A stretch of 63,257 nucleotides of DNA from an uncultured Bacilli bacterium (GCA_944331955.1 CALVIY010000004.1:1-63257); one strand, 5' to 3'. Shown: positions 5,416-38,598, counted from the first letter of the stretch. Numbers and translations are program-made. The notes: generated from the letters alone by a model not told the origin.

Positions 5416-5619
5416 ATGTCTCAATTAATTCAATATACAAGTAAAGAATTAGATTTACTAGCAAGATTAATGCGAGCAGAAGCAGTTGGTGAAGGAGATT
5501 ATGGTATGCTTATGGTTGGTAATGTTGGTGTAAATAGAGTCCTTGCTAACTGTTATACATTTAGAAATATAAATACAATTACCAAAATGGTATTTCAAAA
5601 TCCAGGAGGACTTTGTTAA
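5416..5619 (+). pseudogene. cwlJ: 5' part of a split CwlJ-like spore cortex-lytic enzyme (Hydrolase_2 family)
   Basis: LLARLMRAEAVGEGDYGMLMVGNVGVNRV...MVFQNPGG closely resembles the CwlJ N-terminus; ends LC* just after the att core. Confidence 0.9.
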
Positions 5620-5627
5620 TTAGTACC
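5590..5627 (+). other. Left prophage junction (B arm + GGAGG core + P arm)
   Basis: ...AAATCCA-GG(5605-5606)-AGGA-CTTTGTTAATTAGTACC; the arm at 5611-5627 is a 15/17 inverted match to 38335-38351. Confidence 0.9.
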
Positions 5628-5656
5628 AACAAAAAGAAAAAATTAACAAAAAAAAC

Positions 5657-5683
5657 AGGTAGAGCTTATTGACTCTACCTTTT
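5657..5683. terminator. Terminator after the endolysin
   Basis: AGGTAGAG (5657-5664) / CTCTACCT (5673-5680) with A/T tracts. Confidence 0.7.
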
Positions 5684-6572
5684 AATTATTAGATACTTCA
5701 TATAAAGGTCCACAATCACATCTAAATTGAACTCCATCAGCTTCAAGAATTGCAACACCATTTTTTAAATATTTAGTTGGTAATTCTACACCTTTAACAG
5801 TAAAGATGTTATCACATTTCCAGTAATCGCCAACATTTAAAATTGCATCATAATCTGCATTGCTTCCATCAGAATTACATTTAGCAATTGGTCCACTAGG
5901 AATGTAGTCATTTGGATCGCATGGATAGCCATAACAAGTATCATAACATCCAATAGCACCGTTAGGATATTTGCTATTAGGTAATATTATTTCATTTACT
6001 TTAAACACTCCATTAAATTTTACCTTTGACCCTACTTTTAGTATTTGGTCTGCTGTAGAACTAGAACCTCCATCATTTAGTTTTTCTTGGACTTTGGCAA
6101 CAAATGTATTCCAGTCATAAGGATTACCTCGTCTTATGTCGTAAGGACAATCTTTACCAGTCCAGTGATTATGTTGAAATAAGTAACTACTAGCATTTTT
6201 AACACCATATCTTTTTAATATTTCTGCAGATAGTTCTACTGCATTATCAGTAGCTTTTCTTATATCTCCATCAGAATTATCACATATTTCAATTGAGATA
6301 GTTTTCATGTTTCCATCGCCTCTACCATCTCCTTGGCACCAAGCTACCTCATTTTCTGGCACACATCTTACTGCTCTATCTTGATCTACTACATAATTCC
6401 ATGATGTAGTTACATTCTTCCAAGACCCTCTTAAAAGATTAGCATGAGCTATAGCATTAGCACCTTTATTATGATTTGATGTGTTATGGATAGTTATACC
6501 TTTAAATCCAGTTCTTGATATACCTGGTCTGCAACTATAACCAAGTGGGGCTAACATTTCAATTATTTCCAT
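5682..6572 (-). CDS. Endolysin, N-acetylmuramoyl-L-alanine amidase (Amidase_2) with Cys-rich C-terminal region
   Basis: ITIHNT, SWNYVVD, ISIEIC and HNHWTGKDCP motifs; last gene of the lysis module. Confidence 0.9.
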   Translation of the reverse strand: MEIIEMLAPLGYSCRPGISRTGFKGITIHNTSNHNKGANAIAHANLLRGSWKNVTTSWNYVVDQDRAVRCVPENEVAWCQGDGRGDGNMKTISIEICDNSDGDIRKATDNAVELSAEILKRYGVKNASSYLFQHNHWTGKDCPYDIRRGNPYDWNTFVAKVQEKLNDGGSSSTADQILKVGSKVKFNGVFKVNEIILPNSKYPNGAIGCYDTCYGYPCDPNDYIPSGPIAKCNSDGSNADYDAILNVGDYWKCDNIFTVKGVELPTKYLKNGVAILEADGVQFRCDCGPLYEVSNN

Positions 6573-6673
6573 TACTCATCACTTCCTTTTCCATCTTCTG
6601 CTATTCCATTTTTTACTTCTTCTAAACTAGCTTCTTCTTTTGGAAGGCTTGTACCTTCTTTAAATGTTGCCAT
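6572..6673 (-). CDS. Small acidic peptide (33 aa), not in ORF track
   Basis: GAGGAGG RBS; MATFKEGTSLPKEE...; TAATG overlap with the endolysin start. Confidence 0.6.
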   Translation of the reverse strand: MATFKEGTSLPKEEASLEEVKNGIAEDGKGSDE

Positions 6674-6676
6674 ATA

Positions 6677-6949: not shown

Positions 6950-6967
6950 ATTTTCACTTTCCTTTCT

Positions 6968-7216: not shown

Positions 7217-7219
7217 ATA

Positions 7220-7642: not shown

Positions 7643-7643
7643 A

Positions 7644-13040: not shown

Positions 13041-15029
13041 TTAATCTAATTTTATTTTTTCAGCTAGAGGCTGTCCAAATGTAGGATATACAGATTTTGT
13101 ACCATTTTCTATAGTTTCTTCAACCTCTGTAATTCTTAATGTTTCTTTTATATTCCAGTCAACAATTTCTACGTCAACTATATCTCCTAAATCCCATTTA
13201 GTTCGATAGTCATTTGATATAGCAGTAAACTCAATGCTTTTTGTTTCATCACTTAACTTTTCTTTTCCTCTTGTTTCCAAAACATTTTTATATTCAGTAG
13301 ATGAAAGATTATTATTACTTTCATTTTTAGCATCAAGAAAAGTTTCAAATAAGTCAAAGCCCTCATAATCACCATTTTTAACTTCAACCAGAGTTCTACT
13401 AGTACCTTCTCCTGCACCACCTACTAAAACATAATTACACTTATCTACTAAAGTATCTGTATAAGTAGATTTTTCTAAATTATTGTGTGTTGTAGAAAAT
13501 ACATATCTTTCATTAAGACTTTGCTGACTAGAACGATTCAAACCAATAAAGTTTTCAAATCTATATACTTTATTTTCTATATTAGGAACAATTCTAAAAC
13601 CTACATTTGAAAGTTTGGATAATTTACATAAATATTCATAAACATTTTTATAACTACATTGAAACTCAACATAATCACTATCTATTGAAGTAGGCTCTAT
13701 TTCAAAGTCATCTGTTAATGGAGTCATTTCTCGTAGAAGTTGTTTCTCACCTTCTATTATGCTTCCTTTAAAATTTAAAATTTTACGAATAATTCTTCTT
13801 TCAGTTAAATAGGATAAAAAATTACCCGATACTTTTAATTGAACATTGTTTCCATCATCATTAAATTCAATTGTATCAATTAGAGCTGCTTCATTATAAT
13901 CTTGTCTAATAATTATATTATCTTTTTTAGATAACAAATTAATATTATTTTGATATGGAGCGACAATTAATTCAAACTCACCTGCTTCATAATACTTACG
14001 TCTCCATCTCAAGGAAATAAATTGATCAACTACTCCTAAAAAGTTTAAATTTTTATCAAAAACATATAATGACTCATCACTTGAATAAGTTAATTCTCTT
14101 GATATTTGACTATAAAGAATAGGTGTATTACCTGTTGTTGATAAACGATTACAAGTTAGAACATAATAATTATTAGCAAAAACTAAACCATAAATCGTAC
14201 CTGTATTAAATGGATCAGATTCTTCAACCCAATCTATACCATTTATAGAAGTTAATATTGTACCATTATAACCTACCGCGACAAAAGTTCCATTTCCATA
14301 TCTTGAACGAATAAGATAAGAGGTTGTATTTGACTTTTGTTTAATCCAACTTCTTCCATCTTCAGATGTTAAAATTGTACCATTTGCACCTGTTACAACA
14401 AAAATATTTCTACCATAAGTAACACCAACAAGTTTATTATTAACACCTGAACTTACTCTAGTCCAGTTAGTTAAGTTATTAGAAGTTAAAATTGTACCGC
14501 TTTCTCCTACAATAACATATAAACCATTACCATACGCTATATCCATGCTAGCAATATTATCAGGCCCATCATATCTAAATTCATGCTTAGTTATATTATT
14601 TCCATCAATTGTCTCATATATTTGAATTACAGTATAATTTCTTATACCAGTAACAGTATTATAATTATACCATCCAGTCAAAAAAACAAAACGATTATTT
14701 ATAAATCTGCAAGAATTAGATGTCATTGAAAAATCCTTACCTGTATTAATTAGTTTATAGTCCCAAGTAAGACCATCATCAGATACAGCTATATATGTAT
14801 TACTACCATCATTAGAATAACCTGTTACTATAAATTTAGAATTACCATAAGCTAAATTATTTGTAGAAGATATTTTGGTTGAATCTAATTCAACATTTGA
14901 CCAATTAACTAAATCATTACTATAAGCTATCCCACATGGACTATTATGAACAAACCAAAATTTTTCATCCGCATAAATAATATCTCTACCATTTCCTTTG
15001 ATATTACTATCTTTCCATATCCATTCCAT
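13041..15029 (-). CDS. Tal/hub-like protein (ReqiPepy6 gp37-like) with an N-terminal beta-propeller extension
   Basis: Repeated (I/V)xYGNGxFV blades over the first ~310 aa, then LYVFD...SLRWRRKYYEAGEFEL and WDLGDIV. Confidence 0.75.
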   Translation of the reverse strand: MEWIWKDSNIKGNGRDIIYADEKFWFVHNSPCGIAYSNDLVNWSNVELDSTKISSTNNLAYGNSKFIVTGYSNDGSNTYIAVSDDGLTWDYKLINTGKDFSMTSNSCRFINNRFVFLTGWYNYNTVTGIRNYTVIQIYETIDGNNITKHEFRYDGPDNIASMDIAYGNGLYVIVGESGTILTSNNLTNWTRVSSGVNNKLVGVTYGRNIFVVTGANGTILTSEDGRSWIKQKSNTTSYLIRSRYGNGTFVAVGYNGTILTSINGIDWVEESDPFNTGTIYGLVFANNYYVLTCNRLSTTGNTPILYSQISRELTYSSDESLYVFDKNLNFLGVVDQFISLRWRRKYYEAGEFELIVAPYQNNINLLSKKDNIIIRQDYNEAALIDTIEFNDDGNNVQLKVSGNFLSYLTERRIIRKILNFKGSIIEGEKQLLREMTPLTDDFEIEPTSIDSDYVEFQCSYKNVYEYLCKLSKLSNVGFRIVPNIENKVYRFENFIGLNRSSQQSLNERYVFSTTHNNLEKSTYTDTLVDKCNYVLVGGAGEGTSRTLVEVKNGDYEGFDLFETFLDAKNESNNNLSSTEYKNVLETRGKEKLSDETKSIEFTAISNDYRTKWDLGDIVDVEIVDWNIKETLRITEVEETIENGTKSVYPTFGQPLAEKIKLD

Positions 15030-15880: not shown

Positions 15881-18421
15881 CTAACCTCTTTTCAATTTCC
15901 ATATTAATTGCCTCATCTCATTTCTAGCTTCTCTTGCAGCATCTGCTGGACCAATATATTTAGAATAACTATTAATATTTATAGTAGGCTTAAATTCTAC
16001 TGGCTTATCATTATTATTAATATCATCATCTAAATTAGTATTTTTAGATCTATTATTAAGTGGAACTACTTTAGTTTTATTACCTTGTTGTAAAAGCAAT
16101 TCTGGACCTGCTTCCGCAACAATTGCAGCACCATTTAATAAAGTACCACCATTTGCCATATAAGGAATTTTACCAATTTCTTTTATGTTTATTCCTATCT
16201 TTTTGCCACCATATTCAGGTACCCAGTCAGGAACTTCAAAACTAATTTTATTTAATCCTCTTATTAAGAAATTTAATCCATCTATGACAATATTAAGAAG
16301 TCCAATAATACCATTTAAAGGCACTTTTGCAATAGATAATAATCCATTAAATATACCAGAAAAAATATTTTGAATGCCTTGCCAAGCCAAAGACCAATTA
16401 CCTGTAAATACACCTGTAACAAAATCTATAATACCTTGTAATATTTGCTTAATAGAATTATAAAAGTTTGATATATTTACAATAAAAGCATTAACTACAT
16501 TTCCTACTATTCCAAAAGAATTTGTCCAGTCAGTCTGAAATATCCCAGTTAAAAACTCATCTACTGATGTAAAAACACCTAAAATAAAATTCCATCCACT
16601 TATAACAGCATTTTTAAAGTTTTCATTTGTGTTCCATAAGTAAACAAAAAGTGCAACCAATGCTGTTATCGCAGCTATTACTAAAACTATAGGATTAGCA
16701 GCTAAAAAAGATAATGCAGTAGATACACCACTTATTGCTGTTTTTCCGATAGCAAGAACTGCATTTAATCCCACCTGTGCTACCTTCATTGCATTTGTGG
16801 CAACTGTTACTGCACCTTTTCTAACAGCATTTAATGCTAAAGCAACATTCTCATTAGTAAATAAATTTATTATTTTGCTTATACTACCTGCTAATGTGCC
16901 AAACACTATTAATAATGGACCAATAGCAGCAACTAATAACCCTATTGTAATAATTACATTTTTTGTTCCAGTATCTAAACTATCAAACCAATTAATTAAA
17001 TTATCTAAACCATCAGCCATACTATCTAAAACAGGAAGTATATTGGCTAACATTGTTTCACCAATTGATGAAAAAGATGTTTGCAACCTATTCTTCATAG
17101 ATTGAATCTTTGCTTCTGTACCACTATACATAGTATCTTGAGCGGAATTAGCTTTATTAGCAACATCATCATAAGTACTACTAACATCATTTAAAGATGT
17201 AATAATAGCCATAGCATTATCTTCACCTAATGCAGACCATACATTAGAAGCTAAAGTTAAAGCTTCTTGTTTATTTTCCATTTGTTCTAAATCAGAAATA
17301 ACAGAATAAAACACATCTTTAGCAGTTGCATTTCCATTCTTAAATTCATTAAATAAATTTCTAGTACCAGATGAAAAAGAACTTAAATTTTCCTCTATTC
17401 TTCCATCTGATAAAGATATAGTAAATTCTTTAACAAAATCGTTTACTTTATCTAAGTTATATGCACCACTATCTAAACCATTTTGTAATATAGTGAACAT
17501 TTCTTTAGCAGAAAAACCTGCCTGTCCCCATAATTGAGAATATTCAGCAATATTATCTGTTAATTCAGCAGATTTATTAAGACCATTTTGAGCACCTACA
17601 ACAATATAATTAAATGCCTCATCGGCAGTTAATCCCATATTATTTATTAGACCAGTAACACCTCTAATAGTTTCATTAAAATCCATACCAAAAGCATCTT
17701 CTAAAAAGTATGCTTTTTCTGTTATATTTTGTAAATCAGCATCATTAATATCACCTAGTTGCTGTTTTACTAATGCCATTTTATCTGCAATGTCAGCATA
17801 ATCACTACCATAATTATTATCATGTATATTTTTTAATATTGTTTCAAATCTCTCTGTTTCTGATACACTAGCACCAGTAGCAGTTATAAATCTATTTGTA
17901 GCTGTTTCTAGCGACATAGCTGTACTTGTTGCAGCAGCATCAATACCTATTATTCCAGCAGAAAGAACTGATGCTTTTTTACCTGCATCTATTAATTTCT
18001 GACCATTTTCCTGAAGTTGTTTTGAATAATCCTTTAAATCAGCTGTTCCCAACTCAATTTGTTTACTAACATCTTTAATTTGAGTACCATATCTTGTTAA
18101 TTGTGTTTCAGCGGCTTTTAAAGATGTTCTTTTTTTAGTTATAGCTACTTCATTTCTATTTTCAGAATTTTCAAGTTCTTCTAATTCTTCTTTTAGAACT
18201 TTAACTTTATTTTTTTGAAGATCATACGCAGAGTTTAAATAATCCAACTTATCAAGCAATTTTTGACTAGAAGTAGTGTTTTCATCATATTGAGCTTGAA
18301 CTGCTTTAAAATCTTGATAATTTTCTTTTAAAGAAGCATTTACACTATTTAATGATTTTATAAAATCTGTACTACCATCAGCATTAAATACAAGGCCTAC
18401 TTTTTTCAAATCACTTGCCAT
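15881..18421 (-). CDS. Tail tape measure protein
   Basis: 846 aa helical protein with GAQNGL...EYS TMP core and W/F periodic repeats. Confidence 0.9.
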   Translation of the reverse strand: MASDLKKVGLVFNADGSTDFIKSLNSVNASLKENYQDFKAVQAQYDENTTSSQKLLDKLDYLNSAYDLQKNKVKVLKEELEELENSENRNEVAITKKRTSLKAAETQLTRYGTQIKDVSKQIELGTADLKDYSKQLQENGQKLIDAGKKASVLSAGIIGIDAAATSTAMSLETATNRFITATGASVSETERFETILKNIHDNNYGSDYADIADKMALVKQQLGDINDADLQNITEKAYFLEDAFGMDFNETIRGVTGLINNMGLTADEAFNYIVVGAQNGLNKSAELTDNIAEYSQLWGQAGFSAKEMFTILQNGLDSGAYNLDKVNDFVKEFTISLSDGRIEENLSSFSSGTRNLFNEFKNGNATAKDVFYSVISDLEQMENKQEALTLASNVWSALGEDNAMAIITSLNDVSSTYDDVANKANSAQDTMYSGTEAKIQSMKNRLQTSFSSIGETMLANILPVLDSMADGLDNLINWFDSLDTGTKNVIITIGLLVAAIGPLLIVFGTLAGSISKIINLFTNENVALALNAVRKGAVTVATNAMKVAQVGLNAVLAIGKTAISGVSTALSFLAANPIVLVIAAITALVALFVYLWNTNENFKNAVISGWNFILGVFTSVDEFLTGIFQTDWTNSFGIVGNVVNAFIVNISNFYNSIKQILQGIIDFVTGVFTGNWSLAWQGIQNIFSGIFNGLLSIAKVPLNGIIGLLNIVIDGLNFLIRGLNKISFEVPDWVPEYGGKKIGINIKEIGKIPYMANGGTLLNGAAIVAEAGPELLLQQGNKTKVVPLNNRSKNTNLDDDINNNDKPVEFKPTININSYSKYIGPADAAREARNEMRQLIWKLKRG

Positions 18422-21278: not shown

Positions 21279-22451
21279 TTAAGCTCCTACATCTTCTTCT
21301 GTATTTTCACTTGTTGGTAATGATACAACTGTTGCTAATGTTTTAATAGTTGGAACATATTCTTCTAGTTTAGTTACATCAAAAATATATGCAACATTAT
21401 CAGCTGTTGCTCTACCATTAGCATAAACTTTTCCGACGATTAAATCAGCATCATCAGTTGCTAAAGTTTCTTTGTATTCATTAATTTTAACTTCAGTAAT
21501 ACCCATTGTATATTTACCTTCAAGAGTTAAAGCTGCTTTACCTTTAGGGTTTTCTGTACATGGTATAACTTCTATATTTTTAAATGAAGAAACTAAATTA
21601 CCTTCTGCATCATAAATAGCAGGTGCTACATAATTAGCTTCATCTTCTGGATTACAAATGACATATATTTTATTAACTGATCTTTTACCTTTATTACTTA
21701 AATATACTTTAGCTGGTGCTAAACCTTTAGGTGTAAACTTAGTTAAATCTGTATTAACAGTTTTATCTTGATGAGTGCCATCATCATTAGTTTTATCAAT
21801 TTGCTTATAAATTCCAATTGGTTGCTCTTTACCAGTTCCTTGTAAATAACCATAAGCTATACCATCTCTTAAAGCTTCTGATAAAATAGCCATAAAATAT
21901 TTATCAATAAATTGATAGCTTAGTTCTCTAATTGCTTTTGGAATTATTAAATAAGCATCTAATTTACCTAAATCAGTTACTAAACCTTTTACGTTAGCAC
22001 TTAATGCACCCTTTAATTCTTCTGTTAACCCAGACCAAGAATATGCACCTGTTCTTTCTGCTGTAATCCATCTCTTAACTCCAGCAGGTGTAAAAGTAAT
22101 TAGTTTTAATACTGGCTCTGTTGCTTTTACATTTTCTAATGTTAAATCAACAATTGATGTTGGAATTAAATCAATTTGTGCACCAGTAATAGCTTGTTTA
22201 ATATCTTTGAATTTTTCATAGAAGCTCTCTTCTTCTTTGCTTAAAACACGTAAACCTAATTTACTTGCGTAATCGCTATCAGAATTAGCTTTTATAGCTT
22301 GAGCTTGAATCTCTTCAATTAAATCTTTATTTTTTTCACTTGCAAACATATCAACTACATCAGCAATTGCTGTAGCTTTATCTTCGCTTTCATTTAGCAT
22401 TGTTATTGCTTTTTGTTTTAATTCATTAAATTTCTTATCATTTAATACCAT
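21279..22451 (-). CDS. Major capsid protein (HK97 fold)
   Basis: 390 aa; GTGKEQPIGI motif; follows the protease. Confidence 0.9.
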   Translation of the reverse strand: MVLNDKKFNELKQKAITMLNESEDKATAIADVVDMFASEKNKDLIEEIQAQAIKANSDSDYASKLGLRVLSKEEESFYEKFKDIKQAITGAQIDLIPTSIVDLTLENVKATEPVLKLITFTPAGVKRWITAERTGAYSWSGLTEELKGALSANVKGLVTDLGKLDAYLIIPKAIRELSYQFIDKYFMAILSEALRDGIAYGYLQGTGKEQPIGIYKQIDKTNDDGTHQDKTVNTDLTKFTPKGLAPAKVYLSNKGKRSVNKIYVICNPEDEANYVAPAIYDAEGNLVSSFKNIEVIPCTENPKGKAALTLEGKYTMGITEVKINEYKETLATDDADLIVGKVYANGRATADNVAYIFDVTKLEEYVPTIKTLATVVSLPTSENTEEDVGA

Positions 22452-22471: not shown

Positions 22472-23206
22472 TTATAAATTTAAAAAAGACTTCCAAGAGT
22501 CTTTAGTTTCTTTAGTAGTATTAGTCATTGTTAAGTTTTCAACTTCTTTTTTCAACTTAAAATTCTCATTAACTAGATTTCTTATATAAGAATTAATATC
22601 TTTAATTGACTGTTCTGCATCATTTTCACTTTGAATTGATGTAGCAAAGCCTTTTTCAAATGCAAGTTTATAGTCCATCCAAGTTTCTTTATCCATCATT
22701 GCTTTTACTTCTTCTTCAGATAAACCTGTTTTAGACACATAAATATTTACACTTGGTTTAGTAATAATTTCTAGATCATCAGCAGCCTTTCTCAAATCAT
22801 TTGAATCACCTGTTGCTTCCATCCAAGCATTATGGATCATAATTAACCCACTTTTTGGCATAATTCTTTCTTTTCCAGCCATAAAAATAACACTTGCAGC
22901 ACTACAAGCGAATCCATCAACTTGAGTAATAAGATTGCCTGGGAAATCAGATAATAAACTATAAATTGCTAATCCCTCTGATACACTACCTCCCATTGAA
23001 TTAATTCTAACCAAGAGATTAGGTGTATCAACTTCCTTTAAAGCATCTTTAAAGCTATAAGCATCTACTCTTGTTTCATCATCAAGATCAAGCCACCTTT
23101 CAATTAAATCAGGCTTTCTAATATCTCCATAAATGTATAATTCTGTTACTGTATCATCTAATTTCACAAATTGAAAATATTTATTCTTCTCCCTCATTCC
23201 CATCAC
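22472..23206 (-). CDS. ClpP-like prohead protease
   Basis: INSMGG, ACSAAS, MIHNAW and ETWM motifs. Confidence 0.9.
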   Translation of the reverse strand: MMGMREKNKYFQFVKLDDTVTELYIYGDIRKPDLIERWLDLDDETRVDAYSFKDALKEVDTPNLLVRINSMGGSVSEGLAIYSLLSDFPGNLITQVDGFACSAASVIFMAGKERIMPKSGLIMIHNAWMEATGDSNDLRKAADDLEIITKPSVNIYVSKTGLSEEEVKAMMDKETWMDYKLAFEKGFATSIQSENDAEQSIKDINSYIRNLVNENFKLKKEVENLTMTNTTKETKDSWKSFLNL

Positions 23207-24389
23207 CTCCTTCCAAAGCTATTTCAGCATTTTGATAATTTTTAGTAATGTAATGTTTGTCAGCCCATTCTTCATCAGTCTTTGGTAAACCAATAAATTC
23301 GTTAATCTCATTATGGCTATAACCATTAGAGAATAGTTTATCCATACTAGAAGCACTTTCTAAAATGTCTAAATGCTTCATATTGAATCTATTTATTTTT
23401 ATTCTCTCACCCTTTAAATAGTTATCAACACCAATAATTTTGGCATTAAGACTATCTTCTATAATTTGTAAATGAGGTATTATTCCAAATGTAATAAAAT
23501 CATTTGTAGATGTTGATTTATCTGTTTTATTACCATAAAAAATATCAAGTGGAATATTATAACTCATAGCAACCTTATCTGACCATTTCTTTTCTAATTT
23601 GGACCACTCATCTGATGTTGTTCCTTGGCCAAAATCAATTTTTTCAAGACCAAAAGTCTCAGATAATAGTACAATTGCATCTTCTTCATCAAATAAGCCG
23701 CGAGTTATCTTGTTCTTATATTCTTCATAAGTCATTTCTTCATTAGTGGTTGGATCCTTTAATTTTGGCTGTGTACCAGGCAATTTTAATCGAAACTTAT
23801 GAAGGTTATTTAATTTGTAATGAGAACTAGCGATTCCTAACAAACTTCCTAACTCCCTATAATAATTATCCAATGTTTCCTTTACTTTAGAAGATTTTAA
23901 ACTCAAGTGAATAACATCTTCTTCTGAAAAAGTCTTCTTCAGTATAATAGTATTACCTTGATCATCACTAATTTGCACATTAGAATATGTTTTAGGAAGT
24001 AATATATTTCGACTTGCTATAAAACTATCTGCCAAATATAAATCATTATTTAAACAAACAACCAAAGCCTCTTCTTCTTCTAAATACTTTTTTATTACTT
24101 TATAAAAAAATGAGGTCCCAGTCTCATTTATATTAGGTCTAATATTTAATTTGTAATATTCTAAATCATTTTCTTCTTTTTGGACTTTAGCAGTTTTTGG
24201 ATTTAATCTATAAACTTGTATTTCTGATTTAGAAATTGTTTTAGCAATTATATCTATAGCATGTTCTATAGCATGTCTTTTAATTTCTAATTGTTTCTTT
24301 TTAGCAGAAAATATTGCACTAATAAATTCTTCCATTTTTTTATTATCAGTTTTACCAAAAAGTCGTTCTATTAATCCCAAGTCTTTCAC
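23181..24389 (-). CDS. Portal protein (HK97 family)
   Basis: PNINETG...F and NEINEFIG motifs; position after terL. Confidence 0.85.
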   Translation of the reverse strand: MKDLGLIERLFGKTDNKKMEEFISAIFSAKKKQLEIKRHAIEHAIDIIAKTISKSEIQVYRLNPKTAKVQKEENDLEYYKLNIRPNINETGTSFFYKVIKKYLEEEEALVVCLNNDLYLADSFIASRNILLPKTYSNVQISDDQGNTIILKKTFSEEDVIHLSLKSSKVKETLDNYYRELGSLLGIASSHYKLNNLHKFRLKLPGTQPKLKDPTTNEEMTYEEYKNKITRGLFDEEDAIVLLSETFGLEKIDFGQGTTSDEWSKLEKKWSDKVAMSYNIPLDIFYGNKTDKSTSTNDFITFGIIPHLQIIEDSLNAKIIGVDNYLKGERIKINRFNMKHLDILESASSMDKLFSNGYSHNEINEFIGLPKTDEEWADKHYITKNYQNAEIALEGGDGNEGEE

Positions 24390-24398
24390 CTCCTTGTA

Positions 24399-26069
24399 TT
24401 AAACATAAACGTACTCTACTGTTTCTTCTAATAATTCTTCTCCACTTAATGCACATATCATAGCCATAAATGGATCATTTTTTCTTAATTTAGGCTCTAC
24501 TTTTTCAAAATACATATTGCCATCTTTCCTTGTTTTCAAACAAGTGTTATTGATAGACCAACGCATAATTGCACTATCACCAATATTCAAATTATTATTT
24601 TCAAATAATACTTCAAGTTTAGGAGCAACTATTGAAGCTATAGATGCAGGATATCTTATCATCCTAATTAAACCACTTTTATTATCTTTAGTTTCTACTG
24701 ATATTCCAGCACTTTCAAAAGTTTTCTTAATAAGTTGATACCTATAATTATCTAAAATAATCTTTTTTATATCATAATTATTAAAATATTCAAGTGCCCA
24801 ATTAACAATAACACTCTCATCTATTGATGGCGTATCTACTACAATAAAATCTTCAAAGCCTTTTTGACCAGCATTATCAAAAGGGAATTTTATATCTTTA
24901 TAAAATTTATTAGAAGAACAAATTACTGTTTTTTGTCTCCAACATAATTCGTCTCCATTTTTTGTTAGAACACCAACAGATGCAAAGTCTCTAAGAGATG
25001 CAAAATCAATTCCAATTATAGCTGGTTGATTTTTCTTTGGAATATAATCTCTTGGTATTTTATTTTCAACATCTTTATAAGATGCTTTTAATATGTTAGC
25101 CCAAGAAGTTATGATTAGATCATCTCTTTCTGCAGGCAGATTCATTCGTTTACTTAAAAATTCACTTCTTTTTGAAGGCCTACTTTTTTGCTCTATCCAG
25201 TCTATCATAATTGCATCTTGAAGTTCTGGAAGAAATGGTAATGAAGGATTAGCCTTTTCCCAAAGATTAGGATTATCAACTTCTTCTAAACTATCCATCT
25301 TACATAAAAAAGGAAAATATCTTAGTTCATTTTTACCTGTTTTTAATATTTGCTGACATGTCTCTAACAATTCATCTAATGGTCCGCCTCTCACATCACC
25401 ATTTGAAGTAATAATAAAAATGCGACCATGTTTTACTTTGCCTAAACCGCCTTGATAAACTTTAATATTCTTATCAGTTAAATAAGCATGATATTCGTTA
25501 AAAAGAATTGCTCCACTTTTTTTACCATCTTTGGTAGCAGCATTGGAAGTATTAAACCTAAATTTAGCTTTTGTAATTCTATTAACAAAATATTCTTTAT
25601 TCCAATAAAAATACTTTTTCATTAAATCTTTATTATTTTCTAAAACATTATAAGCAACATCATAAGTATCATTAGCTTGATCTTCAGAAGTTGCCACAAT
25701 ATCAATGTTATATTTTTCTACACCATAATATTGAGTAGTTAAAAAATGAAGTAATGGAACAATAAATCCATCCTTACCATTACCTCTACCTTCAAGAATA
25801 ATAAATGTTCTAAAGACTGGTATATCATTTTTATACATAAACACAAAAGCATATACAAACTTTTGATATGGAAATAAAGGATAATACCATCTTTCAACAA
25901 ATCTAATACACTTATAATAAGTTTCTTCATCAAAGAATATATCATCTCTTACTAAAGTAGGCTTAACAATATTCTCAATTAATAATTTTCTTTCATTGTT
26001 AAAGACATTTGGACATTTATTATAATACTCTAAATAATTATTAATCTCCTTACAACAAATCATCTTCAT
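24399..26069 (-). CDS. terL: Terminase large subunit
   Basis: GRGNGKD Walker A, LFNEYH Walker B, GIDFA nuclease motif. Confidence 0.9.
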   Translation of the reverse strand: MKMICCKEINNYLEYYNKCPNVFNNERKLLIENIVKPTLVRDDIFFDEETYYKCIRFVERWYYPLFPYQKFVYAFVFMYKNDIPVFRTFIILEGRGNGKDGFIVPLLHFLTTQYYGVEKYNIDIVATSEDQANDTYDVAYNVLENNKDLMKKYFYWNKEYFVNRITKAKFRFNTSNAATKDGKKSGAILFNEYHAYLTDKNIKVYQGGLGKVKHGRIFIITSNGDVRGGPLDELLETCQQILKTGKNELRYFPFLCKMDSLEEVDNPNLWEKANPSLPFLPELQDAIMIDWIEQKSRPSKRSEFLSKRMNLPAERDDLIITSWANILKASYKDVENKIPRDYIPKKNQPAIIGIDFASLRDFASVGVLTKNGDELCWRQKTVICSSNKFYKDIKFPFDNAGQKGFEDFIVVDTPSIDESVIVNWALEYFNNYDIKKIILDNYRYQLIKKTFESAGISVETKDNKSGLIRMIRYPASIASIVAPKLEVLFENNNLNIGDSAIMRWSINNTCLKTRKDGNMYFEKVEPKLRKNDPFMAMICALSGEELLEETVEYVYV

Positions 26070-30442: not shown

Positions 30443-31270
30443 CTAAAACTTAATATTCCTTATTTTTAACTCTTTTTCTTTGTTAGTTAATTTTGTGTAT
30501 ATTCTTGTTGTTTCTAATGAATTATGCCCTAATATATCTGCCAAACCTGCTATATCGTTTGGATAAGTCTCTAAATAACATCTAGCGAAATAATGTCTAA
30601 AAGCATGAGGATGCACTGCATCTTTATTTATTCTTGCTCTTCCTGCCAATTTCTTTAATCTTCTCCAAATAGTAGAATCAGCATAAGCTTTACCAGTCTT
30701 AGGATTAAATATAATTAGTCCCTCTTTAATTTTTCTATCTCTACAATATTTTCTTATTTCCCTTAATAAATCTAACTTTACAGGTATTTCTCTTACTTTA
30801 CCTTTCTTTTTTATTTTCATAGTCTTATCTAAATCTTCAATTTTAAAAAAAGCTAACTCTGAGATACGAATACCTGTTTCTGCTAATATTCTTAAAATAA
30901 TGTAATTATCATATTCTTCATGCTTTTTAGCTGTTCTTAATAACCTATGATAATCAGATTTACTTAAAGAGTATTCTAAAGAGAATTTCTTTTGTTGCTT
31001 TATAACTTTTACACATAAATCTTTTTTACCAATAAAATTTAAAAACTTATTAATTACAACTAAATAGTTATTAGTTGTATTAGGCAAATATTCATCTACT
31101 TGATCTAATTTCTCTTTAAACTCTATAACTGTTCTTTTAGTAAGCTCTTTATCTTTAGAAAATTCTATAAAAGCTTTTATGTTAGTTTTATACTTTTCAA
31201 TTGTTTTTTCTGCTTTCTCATCTTCTTTTAAAAATAATTCAAACTCTTCTAACTTCGCTTCTAAATCCAT
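30443..31270 (-). CDS. Tyrosine recombinase (XerC/D-like) with N-terminal SAM-like domain
   Basis: TGIRISE, HPHAFRH and LGHNSLETTRIY catalytic motifs intact. Confidence 0.9.
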   Translation of the reverse strand: MDLEAKLEEFELFLKEDEKAEKTIEKYKTNIKAFIEFSKDKELTKRTVIEFKEKLDQVDEYLPNTTNNYLVVINKFLNFIGKKDLCVKVIKQQKKFSLEYSLSKSDYHRLLRTAKKHEEYDNYIILRILAETGIRISELAFFKIEDLDKTMKIKKKGKVREIPVKLDLLREIRKYCRDRKIKEGLIIFNPKTGKAYADSTIWRRLKKLAGRARINKDAVHPHAFRHYFARCYLETYPNDIAGLADILGHNSLETTRIYTKLTNKEKELKIRNIKF

Positions 31271-32169: not shown

Positions 32170-32504
32170 AACACCTCAATTACCTCCCTCTTTTCTAATT
32201 TAAATAGCAAATTAGTTACTAGTTCCTCTAGTTGCTTATTTTTTTGCTTAAGTTGATTTATTTCTTTACGTAATTTTATATTTTCCAACAAACATTTATC
32301 ATGAGTATCAAATAATCCTAACTTAAGTAACTCTGTAGGTAACATTAAATACTTATCACTACAATATACATCATAATTATTACCTGTTACCTCTTCTAAC
32401 CTACTAACCCACTTTTCTAATTCTTTTAGTTCTTTTTCCACCTTTTTATTCCTTTCTCCATCCATTTGGTTCATTATATTTTTTATTAGTTCCTTTAACA
32501 TCAA
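32166..32504 (-). CDS. Phage hypothetical protein (start uncertain)
   Basis: ORF between the helicase and coiled-coil genes. Confidence 0.55.
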   Translation of the reverse strand: MMLKELIKNIMNQMDGERNKKVEKELKELEKWVSRLEEVTGNNYDVYCSDKYLMLPTELLKLGLFDTHDKCLLENIKLRKEINQLKQKNKQLEELVTNLLFKLEKREVIEVL

Positions 32505-33708
32505 ACCTTTGATTTAGTTGATTATATTCAAGAGTAAGAATACCAGTTTGACCATTCCTATTTTTACCAATTATTACTTCGATTTCTTCTATTTCCATTT
32601 CTACACCTTTATAATAATTTTCATTATGTAGCATTAAGACTGTAGTTGCTGACTGCTCTAGTTCTCCAGTCTCTTTAAGATCACTAATTTTAGGTCTCTT
32701 ATCTTTTGTGTTTTCAGAATTTCTATTAATTTGAGCCACTAGAAAGATAGTACAGTCATAATCTAATGATATTTGTCTTAATTCTTTAACAATAGCAGTT
32801 GTCTTCTCATATAGAGACTTAGTCTTATCATTACTTCCAATTAATCCCACATAGTCAATAAAAGCCAGTGTATGTCCTTGTTTACTCTCTTCAATAATTC
32901 TTTTTCTAATGCTAGAAATAGTTTGACTTCTACTGATTACTTTGATATTTTTATTAGCAATAGCTTTACTTCCCTTAATCAGTTGTTCTTTCTGATATTC
33001 AGTCGCCGGATTATCATGATAGATAATTGGAATTTTAGTATTTATACCAACAAGTCTTTGATACACTTGTTTATCGCTCATTTCCATATTAAACAAAATG
33101 CAATTATATCTATCTGATAAATCCTCAAGCAAATTTAATATAAAGCCAGTCTTGCCAATACCTGGTCTAGCAGCTACTACAACTAAATCATGTTCTTGTA
33201 TATTTGCATACTTAGATAATTTTTCAAATCTAAAATTAATCCCTTTATTTTTAGAATTTATTATCTTAAATACCTCTTCCCCAGATAATCTATCTGCTGA
33301 TGTTTTAATACTTAAAGCTTCGTATTTATGAATATCTGTTAATAATTCCTCTTGGGATATTTGATTATTTTTAAACTTATCAATAACATTTAAGATTAAA
33401 CTATTTACATATCTTTCAAATAGTAATTCCTGATAATAGTCAAACCTATTACCAAACGAGTTTGTCATAATATTAACCAGTTTATTAATTATTACCTCTT
33501 GATTAAATCGTTGATTAAATAAATGCTTATATTTTTCTCCTAATGCCACTAAATCAACATTTCTAATATCTTGATACTGTTTTTTTAGAAGCTTAACTAT
33601 AAATCTATTTTCAATGTTTTTAAAGCACTCATCTGGAATAATAAGTTTAGCAATATTCTCAGGATGTAATATTAAACAACCTATTACTTCTTCTTCTAAA
33701 TCTAACAT
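32446..33708 (-). CDS. DnaB-like replicative helicase
   Basis: AARPGIGKT, FIDYVGL, QINR, DLKETGELEQ and KNRNG motifs. Confidence 0.9.
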   Translation of the reverse strand: MLDLEEEVIGCLILHPENIAKLIIPDECFKNIENRFIVKLLKKQYQDIRNVDLVALGEKYKHLFNQRFNQEVIINKLVNIMTNSFGNRFDYYQELLFERYVNSLILNVIDKFKNNQISQEELLTDIHKYEALSIKTSADRLSGEEVFKIINSKNKGINFRFEKLSKYANIQEHDLVVVAARPGIGKTGFILNLLEDLSDRYNCILFNMEMSDKQVYQRLVGINTKIPIIYHDNPATEYQKEQLIKGSKAIANKNIKVISRSQTISSIRKRIIEESKQGHTLAFIDYVGLIGSNDKTKSLYEKTTAIVKELRQISLDYDCTIFLVAQINRNSENTKDKRPKISDLKETGELEQSATTVLMLHNENYYKGVEMEIEEIEVIIGKNRNGQTGILTLEYNQLNQRFDVKGTNKKYNEPNGWRKE

Positions 33709-34364
33709 TATTCAAGCCTCCGATAATGACACTCTTCACTATCTTCACTCTGCTGCTCTTTTCTTTTCTTTAAGTGCTTTTTTATAGAATTTACATCCTT
33801 TAGATTAGCTTTATCCCACTCATAAAGAATTTTATCAGTGTATTTAACATTATAAACTTGATTCAGGACTGTCTCTTTAATAGCAAGTCTTATAATTTCA
33901 GGATCATATTTCCATGAAGTAATAAATTCAACTTCTGCTGATGATAATGTCCTACCAAATTCTTTTTCAACAAAATCCAATACATTACCATTTACATTAA
34001 CATTATCATTACCATTTACATTAACATTTACATTTACATTAGGTTTTTTATTTTGAAACCATTGGTTTTCACTTTCAAAACCAGTGGTTTTTTTATAGTT
34101 TTCTTCATAGTTATTAGGTAGGTTATTATCAACTTTTTTAGATGGCCTACCACCCTTTTTACCATCTTTTTTTCTTTTAGTGTTGGCATCTAATTGTGGT
34201 TTTGCCATTATAAACAATGATTCTAATTCTTCATCTAAATCAGGCTCAATACCAGTCAAAGCATAATCGATTATTGCCTCATAAAATGCTAACCTTTTAT
34301 CATCACTCTTCTTTTTTACTGCTTTTCTAAAACTATCATAAAAAACAAAACTATCTTGTATCAT
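33708..34364 (-). CDS. Replication initiator (DUF6291-like N-terminus + DnaD-like domain)
   Basis: SFVFYDSF...YEAIIDYALTG; NVNVNVN linker; KYTDKILYEW. Confidence 0.8.
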   Translation of the reverse strand: MIQDSFVFYDSFRKAVKKKSDDKRLAFYEAIIDYALTGIEPDLDEELESLFIMAKPQLDANTKRKKDGKKGGRPSKKVDNNLPNNYEENYKKTTGFESENQWFQNKKPNVNVNVNVNGNDNVNVNGNVLDFVEKEFGRTLSSAEVEFITSWKYDPEIIRLAIKETVLNQVYNVKYTDKILYEWDKANLKDVNSIKKHLKKRKEQQSEDSEECHYRRLE

Positions 34365-34890: not shown

Positions 34891-35133
34891 TTATGGCTCT
34901 TTTCTTTGCGTTTTCGCAAGAACTCGATTAAAAAAAATAAACAAATCTATATTATATGGCTTTAATAATTGCTCTATTTTGGATAAATTCATATCTTTTA
35001 ATCCTATCTCATACTTACTAATAGTACTTGTTGCAACACCAGTTTTTATAGCAAGTTCTTCTTGTGAATCACCATTCTCGATTCTAACTATTTTTAATTC
35101 TGAACCTACTATTTTTAAAAAATCTGCTTTCAT
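34891..35133 (-). CDS. Cro-like XRE HTH regulator
   Basis: SQEELAIKTGVATSTISKYEIG; divergent from the repressor. Confidence 0.8.
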   Translation of the reverse strand: MKADFLKIVGSELKIVRIENGDSQEELAIKTGVATSTISKYEIGLKDMNLSKIEQLLKPYNIDLFIFFNRVLAKTQRKEP

Positions 35134-35243: not shown

Positions 35244-35588
35244 ATGAACTTCTTTTCTAAAAATCTAGAATATTTAAGAAAACAAAAAGGTCTGTCAAGA
35301 GCAGAATTATCAAAAAAATTAAATGTAAATCAGTCAACTATATCTCGTTGGGAAAATGGAGATATGGGAGTAACTGTTGACAATGCTTATGATGTTGCCA
35401 ATTTCTTTAACATTTCAATTTCTGATTTAACAGGAAAAGATATTACTAATTCAAAAAATAGTTTTGACGAATTAGAACTGCTTTTTGATAAAAATAAAGA
35501 TATATTAACTGATGAAGATAAAGAATATATGAAATTTATAATAGAAAAAAGGAAAAGAGAAATTGATAAACAGTTAGGAGACGAATAA
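35244..35588 (+). CDS. CI/ImmR-like XRE repressor
   Basis: LSRAELSKKLNVNQSTISRWENG HTH. Confidence 0.85.
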   Translation: MNFFSKNLEYLRKQKGLSRAELSKKLNVNQSTISRWENGDMGVTVDNAYDVANFFNISISDLTGKDITNSKNSFDELELLFDKNKDILTDEDKEYMKFIIEKRKREIDKQLGDE

Positions 35589-35908
35589 TGAAAAAAACAA
35601 CTTTACTAATTGTACTATTAATAATTATTATTTTAGTTTTATCTGTAATCGTAGTCTTCCAATTTAATAGTAATAATAAACTAAATAATACAATTAACTT
35701 GCTAATTGATGATAATTTTGTTGAAGCCGAAAAATATATAAAAAATAATAACTTATATAAAAATATTGATTATGATTTATTAGTAAAAAAAATAAATAAG
35801 CAACCAACTGCAAGATTAGACTCAAATTCTAAAACTGGCAAAGTTATAGACTGGTATGATGAATATACTTGCAAACGTTTTATTAATGATTATGATATAT
35901 GCAATTAA
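35588..35908 (+). CDS. Membrane-anchored accessory protein
   Basis: N-terminal TM segment; lysogeny module. Confidence 0.6.
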   Translation: MKKTTLLIVLLIIIILVLSVIVVFQFNSNNKLNNTINLLIDDNFVEAEKYIKNNNLYKNIDYDLLVKKINKQPTARLDSNSKTGKVIDWYDEYTCKRFINDYDICN

Positions 35909-36292
35909 AAGTATGCTAGTATAGGTACTTAATAAAAAGGGGAAATGAAACAATGAATTTACATAATTTATTAAGTGGAGAAATAACACAAAAAGAATTA
36001 TTAAATTATTATAATGCTAATATTACTTATATAAGATTACCAAAACATATAAATGGTTGTGTGTTTCCTTACAAAGGTATTAACAATATTTATATAAACG
36101 AAAGTTTATCTTATTATAAAAAGAAAAAAACTATAATACACGAACTAGCACATATAGAGTTAAATCATTTATATCAAATAGATAAAGAAATATATTATAA
36201 AAAAGATAAATATGAAGATGAAGCAGATAAATATATAGACTTTCTTTTAAATAATATTAAACACGTTTAAAAGTATGCTAGTATAGGTGCTT
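35905..36292 (+). repeat. 26-bp direct repeat pair flanking the ImmA gene
   Basis: TTAAAAGTATGCTAGTATAGGT(A/G)CTT at 35905-35930 and 36267-36292. Confidence 0.85.
35953..36270 (+). CDS. ImmA/IrrE-family metallopeptidase (antirepressor)
   Basis: IIHELAH zinc motif and YEDEAD. Confidence 0.85.
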   Translation: MNLHNLLSGEITQKELLNYYNANITYIRLPKHINGCVFPYKGINNIYINESLSYYKKKKTIIHELAHIELNHLYQIDKEIYYKKDKYEDEADKYIDFLLNNIKHV

Positions 36293-36330
36293 TTAATATA
36301 AATTTTATCGCAGTAAAGGAGGTGTAAATC

Positions 36331-36843
36331 ATGGAAGTAGAAAAAAAGAAAATGCCTAAATGGGCAATTGTAGTTATTATAATACTAGTTATTTGTATAA
36401 TTGGAGGATTAGCTGGTGGAAACAATAGTAATCTTTCAGATGATAGTAACGATAACAATAACCAAGAAGAACAACAAACGAATGAAGTGACAGAAACAAT
36501 AGAAGAAAATGAAGATACTCAAACTGTTGAAGAAACTATACCAACTGAATATAGAAATGCTTTAAATCAAGCTGATACCTATGCTAATGTTATGCACATG
36601 TCTAAACAAGGAATATATGATCAACTAACTTCTGAATATGGAGGACAATTTGAAGCAGATGCAGCCCAATATGCAATAGATAATGTTCAAGCCGACTGGA
36701 ATGCTAATGCACTTGCTAAAGCTAAAGATTATCAAGATACAATGAGTATGTCCAAAAATGCAATATATGATCAATTAGTTTCAGAATATGGAGAACAATT
36801 TACTGCTGAAGAAGCACAATATGCTATTGATAATTTAAATTAA
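36331..36843 (+). CDS. Ltp-family host-cell-surface (superinfection exclusion) protein
   Basis: TM anchor plus two repeats of NAL.KA..Y...M.MSK..IYDQL.SEYG.QF...AQYAIDN. Confidence 0.85.
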   Translation: MEVEKKKMPKWAIVVIIILVICIIGGLAGGNNSNLSDDSNDNNNQEEQQTNEVTETIEENEDTQTVEETIPTEYRNALNQADTYANVMHMSKQGIYDQLTSEYGGQFEADAAQYAIDNVQADWNANALAKAKDYQDTMSMSKNAIYDQLVSEYGEQFTAEEAQYAIDNLN

Positions 36844-36982
36844 AAAAAGACCTCGTACTGGCATACGAGATCAAAACAGAAAACATTTCAATACCCACTA
36901 CGATAAGAAATTTTTTTCTGCTATTTAATTATAGCATTAAAATCTTTTCTTATCAATAAAATTAAAGAAAGGAAGTGCTATA

Positions 36983-38335
36983 ATGATTAAAAATGTAGCA
37001 ATATATTGTCGTGTATCAACTGAAGAACAAAAGAAGTTTGGAATATCAGTTGACGATCAAAAAAACAGTTTAACAGAATATTGTAAAAGAAATAAATATA
37101 AAATATATGACTATTACATAGATGAAGGTGTATCAGCAGGAACAATATCAAAAAGGAAAGAATTTGTAAGACTGCTTAAAGACCTTGACAATATAGACTT
37201 AATTATTTTTACAAAATTAGATAGATTCTCAAGAAATGTAAGAGATGCTAACAACTTACTAGTAGAATTAGATAAACATAATACTTCATTTAAAGCTATA
37301 GATGAGGACGATATAGATACTTCTACTGCTGATGGTAGATTTATATTCAACCTCAAAGTAAATCTAGCAGAACACGAAAGAAATAAGGACTCTGAACGTA
37401 TAAACAGAGTTAATAACTACAAATATAAAGTTGCTAAAACTGTATGCAGTGGACAAAAAATCTTTGGATATGATATAGATGAAGGAAAACATTTAGTAGT
37501 AAATCTTAAAGAAGCAGAACAACTAAATGAATTGTACGATTACTATTTAAAAACATCTAGCTTAGTTAAAAGCTATACATGGTTTAAAAATAATGTAGCA
37601 AATAAAAGTTTAGGTACTGTAAGAAATTATCTTACTGATAGTAAATATATAGGAAAATTTATAACAACTAAAAATAAAGAAGTATTAGAAGACTTTTGTC
37701 CTGCAATAATAGATGAAGATAAATTTTATAAAGTGCAGAAAGAATTAAAAAGGAATATAAAAACAACTAATTATAAGACAAAAAGGGTTTATATCTTTAG
37801 CGGATTAATAATATGTAAAGAATGTGGTTTTAAAATGGCAGGAGGAACTAGAGGGGCTAGATATGACTTTACAAAAATATATAAGTGTAAACATCATTAT
37901 GTAGATAAAGTCTGTGTTAATACCACTTCATTAACCGAAAAATATATTGAAGACTATTTAAAAGCAAATATTTTAAAAATAGCAGAAAATAATATCTTAA
38001 AGGCACAAAAAAAGAAGAAAATAACTAGTAAAAATAAAGCAGCAGAAATAAAAAACAAAATGAATAAACTTGTAGATTTATATCTTAATGATTTAATAGA
38101 CAAAGATAAATATAATCAGGACTACAATTATTTAAAAGAAGAGTTAAAGAAAGAAGAACAAGCGACCAAAGAAGAACAAAATATTAACATAGATAATCTT
38201 CAAAAATTTCTAAAAATGGATTTCTTAACCATTTATGACACTTTAACAGATGTAGAAAAGCAAAGATTATGGCGAAGCATTATTGATAATATAACAATAG
38301 ATAATAACAAAAACATAACAATTAATTTTTTATAG
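36983..38335 (+). CDS. Large serine recombinase (prophage integrase)
   Basis: YCRVST catalytic Ser, KLDRFSR, recombinase domain, CKECG...C zinc ribbon and coiled coil. Confidence 0.95.
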   Translation: MIKNVAIYCRVSTEEQKKFGISVDDQKNSLTEYCKRNKYKIYDYYIDEGVSAGTISKRKEFVRLLKDLDNIDLIIFTKLDRFSRNVRDANNLLVELDKHNTSFKAIDEDDIDTSTADGRFIFNLKVNLAEHERNKDSERINRVNNYKYKVAKTVCSGQKIFGYDIDEGKHLVVNLKEAEQLNELYDYYLKTSSLVKSYTWFKNNVANKSLGTVRNYLTDSKYIGKFITTKNKEVLEDFCPAIIDEDKFYKVQKELKRNIKTTNYKTKRVYIFSGLIICKECGFKMAGGTRGARYDFTKIYKCKHHYVDKVCVNTTSLTEKYIEDYLKANILKIAENNILKAQKKKKITSKNKAAEIKNKMNKLVDLYLNDLIDKDKYNQDYNYLKEELKKEEQATKEEQNINIDNLQKFLKMDFLTIYDTLTDVEKQRLWRSIIDNITIDNNKNITINFL

Positions 38336-38370
38336 GTACTAACTCACAAAGACCTGGAGGTTTCGCTGGT
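38335..38370 (+). other. Right prophage junction (P arm + GGAGG core + B' arm)
   Basis: GGTACTAACTCACAAAG-ACCT-GG(38356-38357)-AGG-TTTCGCTGGT. Confidence 0.9.
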
Positions 38371-38598
38371 ATAAACAGTCCTCAATTCACATCAGGTTCT
38401 ACTATCAAAGAAAGAGAACTAGCAGAAAGAACTTTAAAAGGAGAATATTACTATCCTGCTACCAATGCATTATGGTTCTATGCACCAGGAAGAAATAGCA
38501 ATTGTATTAGTACCTGGTATGATCAAGCCCTAGCAGGAAGATTTAAAAATCATTGTTTCTATGCCCCTGATCCTAGTGTATGTCCACCTCTTTATTAA
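38356..38598 (+). pseudogene. cwlJ: 3' part of the split cwlJ-like gene (80 codons + stop), not in ORF track
   Basis: GGFAGINSPQF...YYYPATNALWFYAPG...CISTWYDQALAGRFKNHCFYAP...CPPLY* matches the CwlJ C-terminus; no start codon of its own. Confidence 0.9.

Follow-up and report, generated by a model that had tools for sequence, protein, structure and literature searches.

The stretch of DNA analysed here (hereafter the window) comprises 63,257 nucleotides from an uncultured Bacilli bacterium (GCA_944331955.1 CALVIY010000004.1:1-63257) and contains a Hydrolase_2 gene of predicted CwlJ type that is split by a complete prophage encoding a large serine recombinase (LSR). The 5' part of the gene (5416-5604, plus strand) holds codons 1-63, including the codon for an invariant Glu22, and the 3' part (38356-38598, plus strand) holds codons 64-143 and the stop codon, without a start codon of its own. 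Joined in frame, the 63 and the 80 codons rebuild an open reading frame (ORF) of 143 amino acids that reads ...MVFQNP|GGFAGIN... across the junction, placing the insertion in codons 62-65 (N-P-G-G). The sole stretch common to both junctions is GGAGG, found at 5605-5609 in the left junction attL (...TTTCAAAATCCA-GGAGG-ACTTTGTTAATTAGTACC..., 5593-5627) and at 38356-38360 in the right junction attR (...GGTACTAACTCACAAAGACCT-GGAGG-TTTCGCTGG..., 38335-38369). In the lysogen, the 5' frame reads on into the phage as far as a stop codon at 5617-5619, giving a 67-aa fragment.

The split gene, its putative promoter and the prophage

Against the joined protein, the Pfam profile Hydrolase_2 (PF07486) matched with an E-value of 1e-14 and 55.4 bits (cut-off 27). 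The match was complete (profile positions 1-100 of 100) over residues 25-132 and therefore spans the junction, and neither gene fragment alone is a complete Hydrolase_2 domain. A search of the PDB with the single sequence gave no match and a profile was needed to reach SleB; built from 37 homologues, it reached the SleB catalytic domains 4F55 and 4FET. Glu22, invariant in these 37 homologues, was aligned by the profile with the Glu of the SleB GES motif, the catalytic residue of SleB. The AlphaFold model of the rebuilt protein had a predicted local distance difference test score (pLDDT) of 90, and the sole significant Foldseek matches in the PDB were SleB catalytic domains (probability 1.0, template-modelling score 0.64-0.77). 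The rebuilt protein, with the N-terminus MSQLIQYTSKELD, contains the Hydrolase_2 domain only and has neither a signal peptide nor a peptidoglycan-binding domain; the NCBIfam SleB equivalog model scored 36.7 bits, far under its cut-off of 236.5. Judged by its size, single domain and missing signal peptide, the product is predicted to be of CwlJ rather than SleB architecture; neither a match to a CwlJ-specific model nor a partner gene was found for it. Residues Q61, P63, G64, G65 and F66, encoded by the target codons, are invariant across the protein family. An earlier note on this DNA, made from the sequence alone, had claimed that a prophage splits a cwlJ gene, that 63 and 80 codons join in frame at GGAGG, and that the joined ORF should match a Hydrolase_2 hidden Markov model. 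The join proved right in every detail, and together with the full-profile match and the SleB-like fold it upholds the claim of a split CwlJ-type gene.

Upstream of the gene lies a promoter-like element of σK/σE type, AC-N16-CATAAAGTA (5375-5401, plus strand), followed by the ribosome-binding site (RBS) AGGTGAT (5406-5412) and the ATG at 5416. CATA stood at most 22 nt from the RBS in 76 of 78 orthologous loci. After dereplication of the upstream regions below 70% identity (n = 43), T+7 was kept in 43/43 and A+8 in 38/43; the spacing between element and RBS was almost always 14 nt, positions -19 to -17 were A/C-rich, and the remaining upstream sequence was unrelated. The motif is not over-represented in the window (71 observed versus 92 expected), and the full arrangement ahead of a start codon occurs there once, at this gene only. 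CATAnnnTA followed by an RBS was also present ahead of the neighbouring Amidase_3-LysM gene in about 20 loci, wherever the true start was present. Being common to the hydrolase and the amidase genes, the element looks like a promoter class and not a one-gene quirk. By its letters it fits the -10 element common to σE and σK promoters and is not TATAAT in register, with the caveat that a start site 6-8 nt past the -10 element would lie within the RBS and leave a very short leader. The gene is probably expressed from a mother-cell-type promoter; in Bacillus subtilis, cwlJ is controlled by σE and SpoIIID (PMC517825).

The LSR gene (36983-38335, plus strand) encodes a 450-aa integrase with Resolvase, Recombinase and Zn_ribbon_recom domains (PF00239, 1.6e-33; PF07508; PF13408) and the serine motif YCRVSTEEQ, VAIYCRVSTEEQ, and it stops 20 nt short of attR. 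The phage attachment site, attP, was rebuilt as AGGTACTAACTCACAAAGACCT-GG-AGGACTTTGTTAATTAGTACCA from the P arm (38334-38355) and the P' arm (5607-5628). Its 22-nt arms match at 18/22 positions around the first GG of GGAGG (5605-5606 in attL), which is the putative crossover dinucleotide. The symmetry has its maximum only at this GG (17/20 versus at most 9/20 at other centres), and 0 of 200,000 random window positions attained a symmetry of 18/21. Symmetric arms are kept in attP-form contigs (L085 19/22, L090 15/22, L092 17/22), and the identity of attP with the bacterial site attB amounts to GGAGG. At least two phage variants with different P' arms (TTTGTTAATTAGTACC versus GCTTTGTGAGTTAGTACC or TTATTAGTTAGTACC) were seen in chicken-gut samples (X25, X29, X47; L085) with the same attB.

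The insert, 32,751 bp long, constitutes a complete prophage of siphovirus type. Its left end bears a two-way terminator hairpin with a T run (GGTAGAG-N8-CTCTACC, 5658-5684, read from the sequence). The minus strand then encodes an endolysin (Amidase_2, 5682-6572, by a Pfam-type domain match), a minor tail protein (13041-15029; phrog_538, E 1e-68), and, by PHROG matches, a tape measure protein (15881-18421), a major head protein (21279-22451) and a portal protein (23181-24389), followed by the terminase large subunit (24399-26069; phrog_9, E 3e-98). A block of small early genes on the same strand separates the structural from the replication genes. The early region includes a second recombinase of tyrosine type (30443-31270, minus strand; 275 aa, Phage_integrase with a SAM-like N-terminal domain), which might serve dimer resolution. 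The replication module with a DnaB-like helicase and a DnaD-like loader (32446-34364, minus strand) is followed by a Cro-like helix-turn-helix (HTH) regulator (34891-35133, minus strand, from the PHROG scan), the first gene in the lytic direction. On the plus strand lie the lysogeny switch (35244-36270), consisting of an HTH repressor (35244-35588), a 106-aa ORF and an ImmA/IrrE-like Peptidase_M78 protein (35953-36270), and an Ltp-type surface lipoprotein (36331-36843) of the kind annotated as superinfection exclusion. The phage carries an ordinary ImmR/ImmA-type switch. No excisionase or recombination directionality factor (RDF) was recognised in a PHROG scan of ten small early ORFs, which returned the Cro-like HTH protein only. 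In a consensus scan, a σE/σK-type promoter (AC-N16/17-CATAnnnTA, or the looser CATAnnnT[AT]) preceded no real phage gene, the LSR gene included; the sole loose matches in the prophage were antisense and within structural genes, and the LSR gene is preceded by a terminator-like hairpin. Three further proposals of the earlier note held up against these data: the CATAnnnTA promoter, as an element conserved in the orthologous loci; the LSR-made insertion through a GG-centred imperfect palindrome, by the arms, the unique centre and the LSR domains; and the intactness of the phage, which has its terminase, portal, head, tape measure, tail, endolysin, replication, repressor/ImmA, Ltp and LSR genes.

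Empty sites, host lineage and target fidelity

Orthologues were surveyed in the best 80 loci from one-genome-per-species contigs. The gene ran uninterrupted from residue 1-4 to its end in 73 of the 80 (L001-L073), and the remaining 7 reach a contig end or were not individually checked. Intact orthologues 93-99% identical to the rebuilt protein were present in more than 20 related metagenome-assembled genomes from the chicken gut, labelled Candidatus Onthousia, "uncultured Tenericutes" or "uncultured Bacilli" and including a complete 1.52-Mb chromosome. Relatives with the empty site, for which a survey had been proposed beforehand, were thus found, and the record titles of these genomes agree with the predicted RF39-like host among uncultured Bacilli. 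Onthousia presumably falls within RF39/UBA660 in GTDB. From gene content, RF39 has been predicted to sporulate with a reduced programme that retains spoIIGA, spoIIM, spoIIP and spoIIQ, among others, but mostly lacks gerQ (PMC10868615). Few taxa were passed on to chickens via egg-surface application, and "Mollicutes RF39" was one of them, alongside spore-formers (PMC7028958).

The host flanks of the window carry ordinary Bacillota genes (EzrA, RpsD, TyrS, YfhO, PASTA and DUF3048 proteins) at a G+C content of 26-27%, and contain no sporulation genes. In about 20 loci the neighbour of the hydrolase gene is the Amidase_3-LysM gene (Pfam), and other neighbours in divergent loci resemble Pta, CdaA/YbbR and a P-type ATPase, as judged by eye; no gerQ- or ypeB-like partner was recognised among the neighbours in these divergent loci. 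At L067:6448-9328, and also in L060, L061, L075, L078 and L079, the Amidase_3-LysM gene is itself truncated, its Amidase_3 domain starting only at profile position 83, and a large serine recombinase of 553 aa directly adjoins the truncated gene. LSR elements of this lineage thus target another gene for a cell-wall hydrolase besides the CwlJ-type gene, and this one lies behind the same CATAnnnTA-RBS element.

The LSR has many relatives, of which ten with 95% down to 54% identity were sampled on longer contigs; the relatives were taken from a protein collection, and a scan of IMG/VR for LSR relatives found none. With the same GGAGG as core, LSRs of 95%, 89% and 65% identity adjoin residues 61/63-143 of a CwlJ homologue, and the host CwlJ homologue in L091 is merely 60% identical. 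Those of 60% and 57% identity adjoin residues 4-65 in inverse orientation at the same core. In these relatives (57-60% LSRs; L094, L095, L101, L102) the recombinase gene is convergent with the 5' half of the hydrolase gene, which it adjoins, so that attP is flipped relative to the integrase gene and the same host codons are used. LSRs of 95%, 78%, 68%, 65%, 59% and 56% identity were found also or only in attP-form phage contigs, with the design GTACTAA...CCTGG(A/C)GG...TTAGTAC kept, and the 54% LSR lies in a Zip transporter gene. All integrated relatives of at least 57% identity (6/6, five sampled clusters and the window) are thus within the CwlJ-type gene, where the same codons are used in several host species and in both orientations. 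The site is stable across species because the target codons are invariant in the protein family.

Junction forms and RNA in chicken-gut samples

The activity of the element was followed in Logan contigs of chicken-gut metagenomes containing the lysogen, among which X1-X3 are the P1 runs and X2 comes from the same sample as X1. The contigs split exactly at the core into attL/attR, attB (...AATCCAGGAGG|TTTCGCTGGTATAAACAG...) and, in some runs, attP (...CAAAGACCT|GGAGGACTTTGTTAATTAG...) continuations, and all four junction forms are therefore contained in the metagenomes. This branching of the contigs, with attB and attP forms at the core, shows that the element is active. The earlier note had suggested a search for attB and attP junctions and claimed that excision rebuilds the ORF exactly; both forms were found, exactly at the core, and attB-form and attP-form contigs coexist in the same samples. 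Free attP-form phage contigs were also recovered (L085, L090, L092, L098-L100, L103).

The depths of attL, attR and attB were 32.7, 25.9 and 37.3 in X1 (no attP), 17.8, 15.9 and 19.2 in X2 (attP 4.6), and 8.0, 8.5 and 8.0 in X3 (no attP). In X25 the depths were 7.7 for attR, 12.2 for attB and 7.9 for attP, and in X29 they were 8.1, 19.7 and 9.0, attP having the variant arm in both. Thus, attP was far below attB in three of the five attB-carrying runs, namely the P1 runs X1-X3. Lysogens made up about 8% of the host in X26 and about 100% in X28 (depth 28) and X33 (depth 7), where one unbranched contig (29.6 kb in X28) crosses attR and no attB or attP branch was seen. A fixed excised fraction, which the attB:attL ratio of about 1:1 in X1-X3 could have indicated, was rejected in view of the lysogen shares in X26, X28 and X33. 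The junction ratios vary like a mixture of lysogen and non-lysogen strains with some free or induced phage.

RNA was considered in chicken-gut metatranscriptomes. X5 represents real RNA, with a depth of about 40 at rpsD, about 0 over most of ezrA and 63-78 in the region at a TnpB gene end; contaminating DNA was rejected as the source of these depths, the coverage being strongly gene-specific. The lysogen in X5 carries a 95%-type phage variant, for which one contig of 2.56 kb extends over the LSR gene from the lysogeny module to beyond attR. An attL-form contig (5491-5711), with a depth of about 62 and its end at the phage terminator, represents the 5' part of the hydrolase gene, and no attB-form contig was found at either junction in X5, in RNA contig data that lose rare variants, give rough depths and are compatible with a minor excised fraction. 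These results indicate that lysogens transcribing the gene from its promoter have kept the prophage integrated, at least in the vast majority of molecules. The message detected in X45 and X50 was exclusively of the attB (intact) form, at a depth similar to that of rpsD. Across X5, X45, X47 and X50 (window 5393-5711), RNA of the CwlJ-type gene was about as abundant as rpsD RNA (about 62 versus about 40 in X5), an unexpectedly high level for a gene thought to be briefly expressed in mother cells.

Several other features were observed outside the prophage. Two 382-aa copies of TnpB/IS605-OrfB (50601-51749 and 59311-60459) are 92.6% identical over 1.43 kb, and the first copy is closely followed at its 3' end by the region (50394-50747) that has the depth of 63-78 in X5 and is among its most covered regions, as a TnpB guide (omega) RNA would lead one to expect. 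Downstream of the split gene, at 38640-38760, a hairpin, GATCTTCAGT...ACTGAAGAC, stands behind a consensus TTGACA-N17-TATAAT promoter, and the hairpin matched no Rfam family; the Rfam scan of the window returned a single tRNA (39001-39071). In the related strain of X5, the spacer downstream of the gene is swapped for 129 other letters.

Probable ordinary lysogeny, possible sporulation-timed excision and known systems

Taken together, the data are probably, though by no means certainly, explained by ordinary temperate lysogeny, in which the gene is inactive until induction. The phage LSR has evidently joined the GG-centred palindromic attP to a short attB in the gene, leaving the lysogen with the 67-aa fragment that ends at the phage terminator and a promoterless 3' piece, and the reverse reaction restores the gene letter for letter. 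Excision would need a directionality factor and would be triggered mainly via the phage's own ImmR/ImmA-type switch, as in ordinary induction. The invariance of its Pro-Gly-Gly codons and its dispensability for vegetative growth may make the gene a convenient landing site. Lysogens and non-lysogens would coexist in varying proportions, with the phage acting as an ordinary temperate phage.

The earlier note had instead proposed a developmental switch for germination competence. Like skin and SPβ, the prophage would be cut only from the terminal mother-cell chromosome, and the enzyme would be deposited on a spore that keeps the prophage. Considering that the spore genome would keep the prophage while the enzyme is still supplied, lysogeny would then be free of germination cost and the phage would ride the spore. 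The σK/σE-type -10 element at a fixed RBS distance, shared by the neighbouring amidase gene, speaks for such a switch, as do the σE/SpoIIID control of B. subtilis cwlJ, the predicted spore formation of RF39 and its transfer with spore-formers in chickens, the faithfulness of a whole LSR clade to the gene, the second LSR element that splits the adjacent amidase gene, the samples with about 100% lysogens, and the precedents in sigK, spsM, spoVFB, spoVR, gerE and yabG. The switch was nevertheless not borne out. The consensus scan revealed no σE/σK-like promoter ahead of the LSR gene or any real phage ORF, and no excisionase or RDF was recognised. A non-replicating mother-cell circle would give attP and attB at about 1:1, and the low attP in X1-X3 therefore counts against developmental excision; the all-lysogen samples X28 and X33 had neither attB nor attP, and the promoter-proximal transcript in X5 was attL-form at a depth at least that of rpsD, with no attB-form contig. 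A developmental switch is accordingly considered unlikely, and sporulation-timed excision, possible in principle, is improbable and unsupported on present data, which may be compatible with excision in a small fraction of sporulating cells.

Several points weigh against ordinary lysogeny as the whole account. Lysogens can dominate whole samples, which would be difficult to explain with an inactivated germination gene if its product were the sole cortex-lytic enzyme, and every tested published element of this kind was excised during sporulation (PMC4191935, PMC5595907, PMC10747680). The target looks like a mother-cell gene, with a conserved CATAnnnTA element shared with an amidase gene that is itself an LSR target. 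Variant-type attP was about as deep as attR in X25 (7.9 versus 7.7) and X29 (9.0 versus 8.1). Contig-level data lose rare variants, so that excised mother cells at a few per cent would go unseen; the phage promoter scan was by consensus only, and the promoter of an RDF is not properly examinable without a recognised RDF. Another explanation is that the split gene does not encode a germination enzyme at all, its product being a general, perhaps vegetative, wall lytic transglycosylase, the CATAnnnTA-RBS arrangement not being a mother-cell promoter and the phage simply knocking out a dispensable enzyme. The sub-threshold NCBIfam SleB match, the missing CwlJ-specific model and partner, the rarity of gerQ in RF39, neighbours without sporulation genes, gene RNA near the rpsD level in four gut metatranscriptomes and a start 6-8 nt past the -10 element that would fall in the RBS all agree with it. 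However, the protein resembles CwlJ and not SleB in its size, its single domain and the absence of a signal peptide, and its sole structural relatives are SleB domains that lyse the spore cortex. The -10 element follows the σE/σK consensus without matching TATAAT in register, and the lineage is predicted to sporulate. A non-germination enzyme is considered quite unlikely. Misjoining of phage and host contigs at a short repeat could be suspected from a shared core of 5 bp in a window taken from a metagenome-assembled genome. The same attL/attR junctions recur in independent runs, studies and assemblies, an unbranched 29.6-kb contig runs over attR in X28, and relatives in other host species show the same junction; an assembly artefact is therefore exceedingly improbable.

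It is conceivable, but at a low probability, that in RF39-like gut Bacilli, formerly "Tenericutes RF39", with genomes of about 1.5 Mb an active phage clade occupies the only CwlJ-type gene and is excised in the mother cell, with lysogenic spores still supplied with the enzyme. If this is true, then together with the LSR element in the Amidase_3-LysM gene, programmed DNA rearrangement would be a regular part of a minimal sporulation programme, and phages would gate the germination competence, and hence the host-to-host transmission, of an abundant uncultured gut lineage. If it is not, the phages would clearly exemplify how sporulation genes that are dispensable in vegetative growth can serve as safe sites of insertion, at a measurable cost when spores revive. 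In both cases, the defined attB/attP pair and the recombinase family are open to direct testing.

Mother-cell excision of prophages or their remnants from sporulation genes is a textbook programmed DNA rearrangement, so far known only from cultured Bacillus and Clostridium species. In Listeria, prophages of the φ10403S/A118 type in comK ("active lysogeny", phage regulatory switches) show that reversible excision can turn a host ORF on without killing the cell, with another trigger and another host biology, namely phagosome escape and not sporulation. Published targets of the sporulation class are sigK, spsM, spoVFB, spoVR, gerE and yabG, with spoVK and kamA for SPβ relatives. In the earlier note, cwlJ was not known as a described target, in keeping with a literature search in which no paper was found that names cwlJ as a target or combines cwlJ, prophage and attB. 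The arrangement is thus of a known kind, and what is new is the target gene and the host lineage: a germination-enzyme gene, an uncultured genome-reduced gut host and a serine integrase clade specialised on three invariant codons.

The closest counterpart is SPβ in spsM of B. subtilis (SprA integrase, SprB directionality factor; PMC4191935, PMC5499854), likewise a functional temperate phage with an LSR inside a mother-cell-type ORF (predicted to be such in the present case), whose precise excision restores the ORF and whose related phages share the attachment-site logic. The target of SPβ is a polysaccharide gene, whereas the one described here is a cwlJ-type cortex-hydrolase gene in an uncultured gut bacterium of RF39-like lineage whose genome measures about 1.5 Mb, and the scans of the present phage revealed neither an SprB-like factor nor a mother-cell promoter. 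Sporulation-timed excision has been shown for SPβ, while here the RNA data appear to lean against it. The skin element in sigK (SpoIVCA/Skr in B. subtilis, CD1231/CD1234 in C. difficile; PMC5025042) is likewise a serine-recombinase element that splits a mother-cell gene, with the recombinase adjoining one junction. It differs in being the defective remnant of a phage, with a sporulation-controlled recombinase or RDF, whereas the phage described here is complete and active, as seen from attP-form and free-phage contigs. The elements yin in yabG (Clostridium botulinum), gin in gerE (B. cereus), vfbin in spoVFB and vrin in spoVR (PMC10747680, PMC5595907, PMC4191935) belong to the same class, in which the ORF is rebuilt on excision, and yin also resembles the present case in having integrated and excised forms together in one population. 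Their growth-phase- or sporulation-dependent excision was shown in culture, and none of them lies in cwlJ. Unlike these four elements, the prophage of the CwlJ-type gene belongs to a whole phage clade that shares its site across several host species.

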